64,000 bases of DNA from positions 8,288,001 to 8,352,000 of the forward strand of contig OZ244999.1 of the NCBI GenBank assembly GCA_965223265.1. Direction: 5' to 3'. Positions 14,788 through 17,114 of this stretch are shown here, piece by piece. The DNA is from Planctomycetota bacterium (lineage in GTDB: Bacteria > Planctomycetota > UBA8108 > SXIK01). Both the position numbers and the translations under genes were made by a program. Position 1 is the first letter of the stretch. Each line of letters starts with the position of its first letter. The notes beneath the pieces are model-generated. The model made no database searches. It saw only the letters and a program-made list of their open reading frames with translations, and was not told where the DNA came from.

Positions 14788-15102
14788 GAGACAGAAGCAG
14801 AGACAGAAGCAGAGACAGAAGCAGAGACAGAAGCAGAGACAGAAGCAGAGACAGAAGCAGAGACAGAAGCAGAGACAGAAGCAGAGACAGAAGCAGAGAC
14901 AGAAGCAGAGACAGAAGCAGAGACAGAAGCAGAGACAGAAGCAGAGACAGAAGCAGAGACAGAAGCAGAGACAGAAGCAGAGACAGAAGCAGAGACAGAA
15001 GCAGAGACAGAAGCAGAGACAGAAGCAGAGACAGAAGCAGAGACAGAAGCAGAGACAGAAGCAGAGACAGAAGCAGAGACAGAAGCAGAGACAGAAGCAG
15101 AG
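14788..15102. repeat. Perfect 12-bp tandem repeat (GAGACAGAAGCA) x about 26
   Basis: Read directly from the sequence; begins 11 nt after the DUF1501 stop. Confidence 0.97.
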
Positions 15103-15137
15103 CAGCAGAGAAGAGGTGTGCCGCCAAGGGGCGTTTG

Positions 15138-15310
15138 CGGCGGCGGTATTGTCGAGCGTAACCGAAGCAGAGCCGGCCTCAAGGGTGCCCTCGCTGCGCT
15201 CGGCGCTTCGCGCCCTTGACCCCGACTCTGCTTCCGTTGGCGGGGGTGAAACGCCGCCGCGTCGGGCGTGCGGCGAGAGTTTCACTCAACCGGTTGACCG
15301 GAGTCTTCTC
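15138..15310. other. Conserved structured non-coding leader, copy 1
   Basis: Shares CGGCGGCGGT(A/C)TTGTCGAGCGTA, a 42-nt core (15179-15220; 41/42 identical) and a GGGTG...GCCGC...GCGGC...TTCACTC hairpin with 16436-16602 (reverse strand). Long stem GAAGCAGAG...TCAAGGG / CCCTTGA...CTCTGCTTC. Confidence 0.85.
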
Positions 15311-15634
15311 ATGGGCTTTCTCGCTTTGGATCACTCTGTTGGCATCGTTCGTCAGTTGCGTCCGCTTGTCTCGCGTGTGCGTCGTCACGACTCGAAGCTT
15401 GCCGCTCAGCTGCGCGACGCGGGGTCCTCCGTGGCGCTGAATTTGGGCGAGGGCAATCGGCGCTCTGGTCGTGACCGCGGGCATCTCTGGCGTGTTGCTT
15501 CAGGCAGTGCCGAAGAGGTGCGTACGGCGCTCCGTGTTGCTGAGGCTTGGGGCTACGTCGATGCGCAGGAGACAGCTCCGGTGCTTGCGGACATCGACGA
15601 GCTGCAGGCGATGCTTTGGAAGCTGACGCGCTGA
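15311..15634 (+). CDS. Four-helix-bundle protein (23S rRNA IVP / Avd-like family), 107 aa
   Basis: MGFLALD...QLRDAGSSVALNLGEG...HLWRVASGSAEEV...AWGY matches the family signature QxxRAxxSxxxNxxEG and AxGSxxE; GGAG RBS before ATG 15311. Confidence 0.88.
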   Translation: MGFLALDHSVGIVRQLRPLVSRVRRHDSKLAAQLRDAGSSVALNLGEGNRRSGRDRGHLWRVASGSAEEVRTALRVAEAWGYVDAQETAPVLADIDELQAMLWKLTR

Positions 15635-15641
15635 GGTTGCG

Positions 15642-15685
15642 GTCTTGGGCCCGCCGTGCCTTTTTTGGCGCGGCGGGTTTGAGGC
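15642..15685 (+). terminator. GC-rich hairpin directly downstream of four-helix gene 1
   Basis: CCCGCCGTGCC-TTTTTT-GGCGCGGCGGG stem-loop, extendable with G-U pairs; only a short T run follows, so function as an intrinsic terminator is uncertain. Confidence 0.55.
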
Positions 15686-15689
15686 GGGG

Positions 15690-16056
15690 GAGAGGCAGAA
15701 CCGGAGTCAGAGACAGACCCGACAGTTGCATAAGTTTTCGCAGGAAGGGCTCAGAAACCCTTTCCCTGAGGTTCGATCGGCAGTTGAGGGACGTCGTGGC
15801 GGACCTCACGTTTGGTGCCGTGTTCCCCTCGCCCACGCACACCCACACGCAGACGTACACGCAAACTCTCACTCAATCGCAATCGCGCACGGTCTTAAGG
15901 CGCGTCTCTTTTGCAACGTTGGGGACAGAGACGGAATCAGAGACGGATGACGGATAGAGATACAGAACCAGATGACAGAGTCAGCGACAGACACAGATAC
16001 AGATGCAGAGCCAGAGACGGACTCGGATGACGGAGACAGGGCCAGATACAGAAGTC
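15690..16056. repeat. Three degenerate hexamer-periodic tracts (about 15690-15720, 15829-15891, 15921-16056)
   Basis: AGAGGC AGAACC GGAGTC AGAGAC AGACCC; ACGCAC ACCCAC ACGCAG ACGTAC ACGCAA ACTCTC ACTCAA TCGCAA; AGAGAC GGAATC AGAGAC ... AGATAC AGAACC ... AGAGTC AGCGAC AGACAC AGATAC AGATGC AGAGCC AGAGAC GGACTC. Confidence 0.8.
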
Positions 16057-16058
16057 GC

Positions 16059-16108
16059 AGGCGCCGTGAGCAGCGCCCGCTACGAAAGTAGCGGGCGCTT
16101 GGGCGCCT
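16059..16108 (-). terminator. Strong hairpin directly downstream of four-helix gene 2
   Basis: Perfect AGCGCCCGCTAC-GAAA-GTAGCGGGCGCT (16072-16099) enclosed by AGGCGCC/GGCGCCT; no U tract. Confidence 0.55.
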
Positions 16109-16111
16109 CGC

Positions 16112-16435
16112 TCAGCGCGTGAGTCCGCTGAGAAGAGCTAGGAGTCGATCGAGGGTCTGGAGAGGCACTGAGACTTCTTCGGCCTTGAGATCGCCCCAGG
16201 CCACCGAGAGCTGCAGGGCAGTCTCGACTTCCCGGGCACTGCCGCGGGCAACGCGATAGAGGTGCAGCCGATCCTTTCCAGCGCGCTCGGCACCCTCCGA
16301 GAGATTGAGCGCGACGGAAGAAGCAGCCCGCCGAATCTGCCGATGGAGATCGGGATCAAGCCTCCGAAGCCGCAGCAATGGAGCCCGCAAGTCGCGAATC
16401 AAACCGAGACTGACATCAAGAGCGATGAAGCGCAT
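16112..16435 (-). CDS. Four-helix-bundle protein (23S rRNA IVP / Avd-like family), 107 aa, paralog of 15311-15634
   Basis: MRFIALD...QIRRAASSVALNLSEG...HLYRVARGSAREV...AWGD; GGAGG RBS; gapless alignment to copy 1 gives 57/107 identities by manual count. Confidence 0.88.
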   Translation of the reverse strand: MRFIALDVSLGLIRDLRAPLLRLRRLDPDLHRQIRRAASSVALNLSEGAERAGKDRLHLYRVARGSAREVETALQLSVAWGDLKAEEVSVPLQTLDRLLALLSGLTR

Positions 16436-16602
16436 GGGAGACCTCCGCAGAACGTAGAGTGAACAGCTCCGCCGCATCCGGGCGGCGGTACTCCACCCCC
16501 CGACGCGGAGCGGAGTGGGTGTCAAGGGCGCGCAGCGCCGAGCGCAGCGAGGGCACCCTTGACGCCCGCGAGCACCGCGTACGCTCGACAAGACCGCCGC
16601 CG
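16436..16602. other. Conserved structured non-coding leader, copy 2
   Basis: Reverse-complement homolog of 15138-15310; core GTCAAGGGCGCGCAGCGCCGAGCGCAGCGAGGGCACCCTTGA at 16521-16562. Confidence 0.85.
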
Positions 16603-16616
16603 TACGGTGACCCCAA

Positions 16617-16755
16617 CCCACACGGCCTCCCACACGGCCTCCCACACGGCCTCCCACACGGCCTCCCACACGGCCTCCCACACGGCCTCCCACACGGCCT
16701 CCCACACGGCCTCCCACACGGCCTCCCACACGGCCTCCCACACGGCCTCCCACAC
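16617..16755. repeat. Perfect 12-bp tandem repeat (CCCACACGGCCT) x about 11.5
   Basis: Read directly from the sequence. Confidence 0.97.
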
Positions 16756-16831: not shown

Positions 16832-16992
16832 CACCCACTCCCACACGGACTCCCCCTCCCACGCCCACGCCCACTCCCCCTCCCACGCCCCCTCCCACTC
16901 CCCCTCCCACTCCCCCTCCCACTCCCCCTCCCACTCCCCCTCCCACTCCCCCTCCCACTCCCCCTCCCACTCCCACTCCCCCTCCCACTCCC
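16832..16992. repeat. C-rich 6/12-bp tandem repeat (CCCACTCCCCCT-like; G-quadruplex-prone on the minus strand)
   Basis: ACTCCC/CCTCCC/ACGCCC hexamers; the minus strand reads (GGGAGGGGGAGT)n. Confidence 0.93.
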
Positions 16993-17114
16993 ACGCAAAC
17001 GCAAACGCAAACGCAAACGCAAACGCAAACGCAAACGCAAACGCAAACGCAAACGCAAACGCAAACGCAAACGCAAACGCAAACGCAAACGCAAACGCAA
17101 ACGCAAACGCAAAC
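16993..17114. repeat. Perfect hexamer repeat (ACGCAA) x20
   Basis: Read directly; in register with the preceding C-rich array. Confidence 0.97.

Follow-up and report, generated by a model that had tools for sequence, protein, structure and literature searches.

The window analysed here, a stretch of 64,000 nt from the chromosome of a Planctomycetota bacterium (contig OZ244999.1, positions 8,288,001 to 8,352,000), contains two convergent genes of 107 codons, here called A and B, each of which is preceded by a hairpin of about 125 nt with a nearly invariant 41-nt core at its tip. Compensatory changes in the aligned sequences support the predicted hairpin in this genome and in other Planctomycetota, and it stands in a fixed position and orientation in front of genes of a single protein family. 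The best reading of these sequences, which we judge to have about an even chance of being right, is that the hairpin is a 5' untranslated region (UTR) that acts as sense-strand RNA and controls translation of the gene downstream.

A conserved leader precedes a family of four-helix-bundle genes

Genes A and B both match PF05635 (23S rRNA intervening-sequence protein) and TIGR02436 (four-helix-bundle protein), a family that includes Avd of the diversity-generating retroelements. The nearest solved chain to the product of gene A is 2gsc_A (E=3.6e-5). The two proteins are identical at 57 of 107 residues (53%) and their coding sequences at 176 of 324 nt. The core TCAAGGG...CCCTTGA upstream of each gene is identical at 40 of 41 positions, the whole hairpin at 100 of 126 and the remaining leader at 27 of 49, and two such core matches were found in 0 of 100 shuffled sequences. 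A preliminary description of this DNA had already held that the leader is conserved far beyond the protein and that its core differs by one base between the copies. Both statements stand, the 42-nt core given there being the 41-nt core plus one more shared base. The core-to-ATG spacing of 90 and 85 nt given in the same description is likewise correct (ATG at 15311 on the plus strand and at 16435 on the minus strand). The core lies in a different frame relative to the two genes and is therefore not coding, as had been proposed.

The genome (9.18 Mb in one contig) has 41 loci for the A/B-type proteins according to tblastn, and 39 matches to PF05635, of which 36 are above the cut-off. Hairpins were found at 40 loci. 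A full-length PF05635 gene follows on the same strand within 260 nt at 35 of them and a gene fragment at two, while no such gene follows at the remaining three. The leaders and their genes form two subfamilies, A and B, and seven pairs have the same arrangement as in the window, with an A and a B gene pointing towards each other and the leaders at the outer ends. Together with the tandem array on their left side, the pair modules are duplicated as units of 1.8-2.1 kb with 80-97% identity.

Structure of the hairpin and comparative support

The core is the tip of the hairpin, which consists of a basal helix (P0), a large internal loop, an irregular stem (M), a helix (P1) and a three-way junction (Table 1). 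Inside P1 (TCAAGGG/CCCTTGA), the three-way junction is composed of 2-3 junction nucleotides and two short arms, P2 and P3. Stem M is characterized by a fixed U.C mismatch, a bulged U and a position that is either U.G or U.U, and this motif is conserved in sequence across phyla together with P1 and the junction. The other parts are more variable in the relatives: the last pair of P1 is G-C, A-T or C-G, P2 is found as CCTCGC/GCTCGG, CCTCAC/GTTCGG, CCGTGC/GCACGG, CCGCGC/GCGCGG, CCGGGC/GCCCGG or CCGCCC/GGGCGG, and P3 contains from 3 to 6 pairs.

The alignment named A2 contains 31 distinct leaders, 25 from this genome and six from another genome of the same order, G007. Here, 83.9% of the cells are paired, compared with 75.0% after shuffling, and the covariation score was matched by 0 of 500 shuffles. 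The 16 pairs with two-sided changes in this alignment bear out the observation in the preliminary description that the outer stem differs in sequence between the two window copies while its pairing is kept. The alignment named A6 contains 29 leaders from another order (the f18 clade), with 93.5% of the cells paired, compared with 78.5% after shuffling, and 20 two-sided pairs (127 cells; 0 of 500 shuffles). Within the own genome, P0 shows no covariation; its counterpart in the f18 clade does.

The three-way junction, which was also part of the preliminary description, is supported by compensatory changes in the relatives, but minimum-energy folding of the window copies does not return it for either strand, with DNA or with RNA parameters, and the case for this structure is entirely comparative. 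Downstream of the core, the leader contains a second hairpin (H2). The segment 15254-15260 (CCGCCGC) is common to H2 and the 3' strand of P0, and since both helices need it, they are mutually exclusive.

Table 1. Features of the leaders, the genes and their flanks in window coordinates.
Feature	Position	Strand	Basis and remarks
P0, 5' strand GGCGGCG, copy 1	15140-15146	+	Pairs with 15254-15260; 25-30 of 31 sequences paired per column
Stem M, 5' arm, copy 1	15160-15178	+	Pairs with 15220-15238; two-sided change in 15/26 pairs of the M+P1 helix
Core, copy 1	15179-15219	+	P1 15179-15185 with 15213-15219; junction 15186-15188
Core arms, copy 1	P2 15189-15203; P3 15204-15212	+	Compensatory changes in relatives
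Stem M, 3' arm, copy 1	15220-15238	+	Pairs with 15160-15178
Second hairpin H2, GTGAAAC...GTTTCAC enclosing CGCCGC.../GCGGCG	15246-15285	+	Per-lineage consensus folds and single-sequence fold
Small hairpin CCGG-TTGA-CCGG	15290-15303	+	Overlaps Shine-Dalgarno GGAG (15300-15303); sequence and fold
Gene A	15311-15634	+	107-aa four-helix-bundle protein; PF05635 E=2.5e-14, TIGR02436 E=2.6e-15
Possible terminator, GC-rich inverted repeat with T-run loop, 3' of gene A	15650-15677	+	By eye only; unflagged in consensus scan
Gene B	16112-16435	-	107-aa four-helix-bundle protein, convergent with A; PF05635 E=1.9e-13
Hairpin, copy 2 (P0-M-P1-junction)	16478-16604	-	Core 16522-16562; covariance-model match, 115.9 bits
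12-mer tandem array (GAGACAGAAGCA)n, left of the cassette	14788-15102		Tandem Repeats Finder (TRF; genome 8302788-8303102); part of duplicated pair module
Right-flank array (CCCACACGGCCT)n	16617-16755		TRF
Right-flank 12-mer/6-mer arrays	16849-17114		TRF

The strand on which the hairpin acts

The wobble pairs and the folding energies point to the sense strand. The variable position in stem M is U.G on the sense strand in 27 of the 29 f18 leaders and U.U in other lineages, and C-G pairs of P0 have changed to U.G in seven of the 29. Alignment A6, which is the best of the alignments, contains 53 G.U cells and 19 A.C cells. The RNAalifold consensus of the f18 leaders has 31 pairs and an energy of -32.7 kcal/mol on the sense strand, compared with 25 pairs and -27.0 kcal/mol on the antisense strand. 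Over 50 sequences folded with RNA parameters, the sense strand has a mean advantage of 7.7 kcal/mol. The suggestion in the preliminary description that the second hairpin, close to the ribosome-binding site (RBS), is an mRNA structure also agrees with the relatives: the ratio of G.U to A.C cells in H2 is 10:2, 7:0 and 43:2 in three lineages. For the subfamily of the window, the H2 consensus fold is -19.05 kcal/mol on the sense strand and -15.8 kcal/mol on the antisense strand, with seven G.U and no A.C (the H2 folds were made per lineage, as the subfamilies misalign when joined). Also in favour of sense RNA, the enzymes that could partner with single-stranded DNA are inconsistently present in the five carrier genomes searched for them.

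A number of observations weigh against a sense-strand leader. The wobble cells in A2 are nearly balanced (29 G.U vs 23 A.C), and sporadic A.C pairs are spread over 26 distinct contexts, compared with 12 for G.U. For three low-GC copies, antisense RNA gives the better fold, and DNA parameters give no overall difference between the strands, with copy 1 favouring the antisense strand by 3.4 kcal/mol. Most mismatches oppose two pyrimidines on the sense strand (99 vs 14 cells; 93 vs 30) and therefore two purines on the antisense strand, and the tandem U.C/C.U of the common P2 variant corresponds to a tandem G.A on the opposite strand, which would be stable. Furthermore, a consensus scan predicted no sigma-70-like promoter upstream, the conservation of the B-type leaders begins only about 12 nt before P0, and the hairpin also occurs without an adjacent four-helix-bundle gene, namely in a miniature inverted-repeat transposable element (MITE) of Terriglobia, in repeats of Caulobacteraceae and on Bradyrhizobium plasmids. 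The balance of the evidence favours the sense strand, although not decisively, and a role at the DNA level, or a dual role, is a live rival to the sense-RNA leader.

Pairing with the ribosome-binding site and a possible mechanism

In the f18 clade, the whole leader is a single hairpin that ends 0-8 nt before the start codon, and P0 is formed by an anti-Shine-Dalgarno stretch (e.g. CTCCTTGT, TTTCCTT or GTCCTTTC) that pairs with the Shine-Dalgarno (SD) sequence. At alignment columns 16-18 and 142-144, CCU pairs with AGG, and five of the six P0 pairs covary (flanks of P0). An SD-like motif is located at most 16 nt from the start in 28 of the 31 matches with an open reading frame (ORF). Pairing of the RBS in the own genome is limited to the small RBS hairpin and to a predicted pairing between the SD and an arm of M in the B-type leaders.

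The sense-strand signals of the hairpin and the SD pairing therefore favour a structure in the sense 5' UTR that would gate translation. We infer that the leader would be co-transcribed with the four-helix-bundle gene and that its structure, acting as sense RNA, would set the accessibility of the SD. The means may differ between lineages: in one clade P0 itself would pair the anti-SD stretch with the SD, in the own genome P0 would compete with H2, and in the B-type leaders the SD could pair with CUCC motifs in the 3' arm of M. The near-invariant P1, junction and M motif may be the docking site of a factor acting in trans. The simplest candidate for this factor is the product of the downstream gene, a basic and oligomeric Avd-like protein, which would then regulate its own synthesis.

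Two further functions for parts of the hairpin were considered and rejected. The TTGAC in the 3' strand of P1 could resemble a -35 box, but lacks a -10-like hexamer at the right spacing in the lineages checked by eye, and an intrinsic terminator would be expected to have a U-tract 3' of the hairpin, which is absent.

Association with mobile elements

An element of about 2.7 kb that encodes a large serine recombinase of 725 aa is inserted exactly at the boundary between M and P1 in five B-type leaders, upstream of the genes at G000:C1 2584047, 6781924, 7189266, 8597726 (minus strand) and 8979464 (minus strand). The insertion point is located between the 5' arm of M and TCAAGGG, and the junctions share GT and an AAG-like core. 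The hairpin therefore serves as the attachment site of this element.

Transposase genes of the IS110 family (DEDD) are located at the edges of hexamer arrays near leaders (G000:C1 488-496 kb, 905.6-906.1 kb, 402.2 kb and 5605-5608 kb), including a tandem series of five, spaced by about 1.75 kb, in the 488-496 kb region. Their apparent target is the arrays, not the hairpin. No DEDD gene was found in the window module, and searches of G007 and G229 for PF01548 gave no match.

Five carrier genomes were searched for a Y1 transposase and a reverse transcriptase. The Y1 transposase family (PF01797) was identified in three of them and not in G007 and G021, whose assemblies are 89-93% complete. The reverse transcriptase family (PF00078) was identified in two carriers, never beside a hairpin, and was not found in G007, G021 and G159; the assemblies with a negative result are 83-93% complete. 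The own genome contains four RVT_1 ORFs of 449-455 aa with near-identical scores (G000:C1 1895554, 3424405, 3516453 and 5913461), none of which is near a hairpin; they are probably copies of one retroelement.

Distribution in other genomes

A covariance model (R1) was built and used to search other genomes for the hairpin. A pattern scan of the genome collection was too loose, with most of its loci representing chance matches in GC-rich genomes; of its 120 reported loci, 80 were scored with the covariance model and three were credible. The hairpin was identified in two of 21 genomes of the own order (the own genome and G007), while neither the hairpin nor the gene family was found in the genomes G001-G003 of the same family. 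It was further identified in four of 151 genomes in a sample of the phylum and in 19 of 48 genomes of another planctomycete order, that of G137, with up to 28 copies per genome. In this order and other Planctomycetota, 32 of the 33 downstream ORFs are members of PF05635. Convergent A/B pairs with the leaders outside and flanked by arrays recur across distant Planctomycetota. In one of these (G224, L083 274-931) the 3' ends of the convergent genes share 29 nt, so that the two mRNAs would be antisense to each other over this overlap.

Outside the phylum, a Terriglobia chromosome (G227) contains at least 150 near-identical copies of the hairpin, each inside a MITE of 317 bp. This MITE (L230, L233, L236-L252) has ISL3-like terminal repeats and 8-bp AT-rich target duplications, with the hairpin as a passenger, and the 1.5-kb ISL3 element of this genome has similar ends but lacks the hairpin. 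We rejected the idea that the hairpin is the terminal repeat of the MITE, the terminal repeats being separate ISL3-like ends. No four-helix-bundle gene is adjacent to the hairpins in the MITEs. In the Alphaproteobacteria, a Caulobacteraceae genome has 17 matches inside composite repeats, and the hairpin was present in four of 61 genomes in a sample of the order to which this genome belongs. On Bradyrhizobium plasmids it follows IS110-family transposase genes on the same strand at a distance of 57-75 nt (L259 2482-2611, L260 2484-2614), where it may be either an insertion target or part of the non-coding RNA of the IS110-family element. The PF05635 genes of the non-planctomycete carrier genomes have no hairpin. 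Since the hairpin is found away from four-helix-bundle genes, it is not simply a gene-specific leader but a self-contained module.

Alternative explanations

The mobile-element associations and the distribution are most relevant to a possible, if rather unlikely, alternative, according to which the hairpin is mainly a DNA-level repeat, either of the REP/REPIN type (repetitive extragenic palindromes and elements formed from them) or a passenger of MITEs. The imperfect palindrome would then fold as single-stranded DNA of either strand or as a cruciform and be conserved through recognition by the recombination, replication or mobility machinery, its position before genes would follow from the spread of the cassette, and the SD would merely overlap the base of the hairpin. 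The patchy multi-copy spread across phyla described above agrees with this, as do its absence, together with that of the gene family, from genomes of the same family, the duplication of whole modules of array, leader and genes, the use of five leaders as landing site of the serine recombinase element, and the neighbouring IS110-family genes on the Bradyrhizobium plasmids. The purine-purine mismatches on one strand and the lack of a strand preference with DNA parameters also fit. However, neither the Y1 transposase nor the reverse transcriptase co-occurs with the hairpin in all carriers, the spread in Terriglobia is explained by the ISL3-type terminal repeats and 8-bp target duplications rather than by the hairpin, and both the SD/anti-SD covariation and the conserved G.U on the sense strand would be unexpected for a pure DNA signal. 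A more specific proposal at the DNA level was made in the preliminary description, in which the strand antisense to the gene acts as single-stranded DNA or a cruciform arm, folded as a three-way junction that owes its stability to C(GNA)G triloops and to sheared G.A pairs in tandem. The acting form would be comparable to multicopy single-stranded DNA (msDNA) or telomeres. In the own genome, both antisense arm loops read R-N-A, with GNA in all but one variant, and the potential tandem G.A in P2, the prevailing purine-purine mismatches on the antisense strand and the DNA folding energy of copy 1 also speak for it. The relatives make it highly improbable. The GNA triloops are not conserved: the antisense loops of the second arm in G007 read ACA, GCA, GTA, AAA and GAA, and the f18 clade has CCT, ACC, CCC, CGC and CTC as well as tetra- and pentaloops instead (on the sense strand UGC, UUC, UGU, AGG, GGU, GGG, GCG, GAG, CAG, AUUC, CGGG, CGAA and CGGAG). 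The tandem G.A is not conserved either: many copies have Watson-Crick pairs in its place (CCGTGC/GCACGG and others), and further copies have lost it by deletion. The C.A mismatches of the outer stem, which would become G.T wobbles on the antisense strand, are real but specific to single copies, since paralogs have C-G or C.T at the position in copy 1 and displaced 5' halves of copy-2-type leaders carry a Watson-Crick partner at the mismatch. In addition, the one conserved wobble of the stem is on the sense strand, and a reverse transcriptase is located beside none of the copies and was not found in three of the five carriers.

The other two alternatives are compatible with a function as RNA. 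Some insertion sequences have read-through transcripts that fold and hide the RBS, and a sense-RNA element with no specific regulator could similarly insulate the gene from read-through transcripts, or serve as a 5' stem that stabilizes the mRNA. This has the position, orientation and sense-strand evidence in common with a translational control leader, and the location of the cassettes in unrelated intergenic sites and inside arrays, where read-through is likely, as well as the variable arms and loops, would be expected if only the overall stability of the stem mattered. We nevertheless regard it as unlikely, as the sequence conservation of P1, the junction and the M motif across phyla exceeds what stability requires. 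Finally, the hairpin, the Avd-like gene or convergent pair and the flanking arrays could together represent an unrecognized selfish cassette, in which the encoded oligomer binds the hairpin and thereby drives the spread or maintenance of the cassette. The hairpin, as RNA or as single-stranded DNA, would be the cis site, and hairpin-only derivatives would ride MITEs and serve as landing pads for elements of the serine recombinase and IS110 types across phyla. This reading as a whole is decidedly unlikely in our estimate. Comparison with a genome of the same family revealed a different neighbouring gene and no empty site, and contigs from two sequencing runs of DNA gave only short, repeat-fragmented pieces and no joints when compared to 15105-16598.

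Comparison with known systems

No match to the hairpin was obtained with the covariance models of Rfam 15 at E<=10 in the window or at E<=1 in 14 related loci. The weak matches, to SBRMV1_UPD-PKd, sR53, RT-15 and to plant and insect miRNA models, were far below the gathering scores and dismissed as unrelated. No description of the leader was found in the literature on PF05635 proteins, on tandem repeats in Planctomycetes and on RNA motifs in Planctomycetes. One candidate is the Rhodopirellula-1 motif, which is listed as probably cis-regulatory in Proteobacteria and Planctomycetes, has an uncertain status as RNA and is without an Rfam accession (Weinberg et al. 2010, PMC2864571). The taxa and context given in the table of that paper match the hairpin, in a comparison by description rather than by consensus sequence or structure, and the two may be the same element. 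We file the hairpin as a structured cis-acting leader motif with an unusual distribution across phyla and a link to mobile elements.

The leaders that sequester the SD in the 5' UTR of, for example, genes for RNA-binding proteins are similar in that they are located upstream of one gene family on the same strand, and the covarying anti-SD/SD helix of the relatives and the mutually exclusive P0 and H2 of the own genome add to the resemblance. Unlike these, the hairpin is also found away from any PF05635 gene, and its role is here read from sequence alone. The intervening sequences of 23S rRNA genes form a long stem within the rRNA gene, whereas the hairpin precedes its gene instead of enclosing it, lies outside the rRNA genes and has a three-way junction at the tip. 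According to the Pfam description and PMC10053308, the PF05635 family is likewise associated there with a long helix, in that case in RNA. A relationship of PF05635 to HEPN proteins was dropped, as the corresponding terms do not occur in the searched portion of a HEPN survey.

Among the DNA elements, the REP/REPIN-RAYT systems (RAYT, REP-associated tyrosine transposase) are also patchily distributed, multi-copy, imperfect, GC-rich intergenic palindromes and targets of site-specific mobile elements. The hairpin differs in its length of about 125 nt and its branching, in the Y1/RAYT family not being found in two of the five carriers, and in being tied to one gene family in Planctomycetota and riding an ISL3-type MITE in Terriglobia. 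Single-stranded DNA can form mini-hairpins with GNA triloops and sheared G.A pairs, and linear replicons and parvoviruses have T- or Y-shaped ends. The tip of the hairpin, with its two C-G-closed arms and, in the own genome, antisense GNA loops and a potential tandem G.A, is reminiscent of both; however, these features are not kept in the relatives, the hairpin lies inside a circular-type chromosome context and has no linked protein for replication or nicking. The attC sites of integrons are imperfect palindromes that accompany small genes of promoterless appearance, and the hairpin would, like them, fold on the strand antisense to the gene. It is located 5' rather than 3' of the gene, though, its cassettes are scattered singles or convergent pairs and not arrays, and AAC/GTT is present at the base of the stem in some subfamilies only, with no core pair conserved across lineages. 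Retrons have an adjacent reverse transcriptase next to the msDNA locus, whereas the four matches in the own genome lie elsewhere, and the DEDD gene that adjoins the bridge or seek RNA of IS110 elements was seen next to the hairpin only on the Bradyrhizobium plasmids.

Avd-like four-helix-bundle proteins of the PF05635 family are common and often encoded in multiple copies, and we know of no function for them outside the diversity-generating retroelements. A conserved and covarying hairpin before about 40 PF05635 genes provides a handle for assigning a first activity to the family, via binding of the protein. The hairpin is common to Planctomycetota, MITEs of Acidobacteriota and repeats of Alphaproteobacteria, and it is used as an integration site. 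Since it occurs across phyla and is an integration site for mobile elements, it is therefore a candidate for a new, widespread structured motif that is missing from Rfam.

Terminator-like sites and tandem arrays

The terminator scan identified a single terminator-like site, located outside the element. The cassettes are accompanied by tandem arrays. Of the 41 genes, 29 have a hexamer-based array within the 600 nt upstream, compared with a mean of 0.7 for random windows (maximum 7 in 200 draws), and 58 of the 273 arrays in the genome are located within 1.5 kb of a four-helix-bundle gene. The array unit, which is based on a hexamer, a heptamer or a 12-mer, varies from one copy of the cassette to another, and a degenerate array is also present between the two genes in the window (15690-16050). 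The cassettes in G007, G021 and G224 are bordered by arrays of a similar kind (e.g. L083 1-120 and 1085-1175, and the upstream flanks of L066 and L068), and a PF05635 gene without a hairpin in the Terriglobia genome is flanked by inverted heptamer arrays. The link between the genes and the arrays may bear on how microsatellite-like arrays arise in bacteria.

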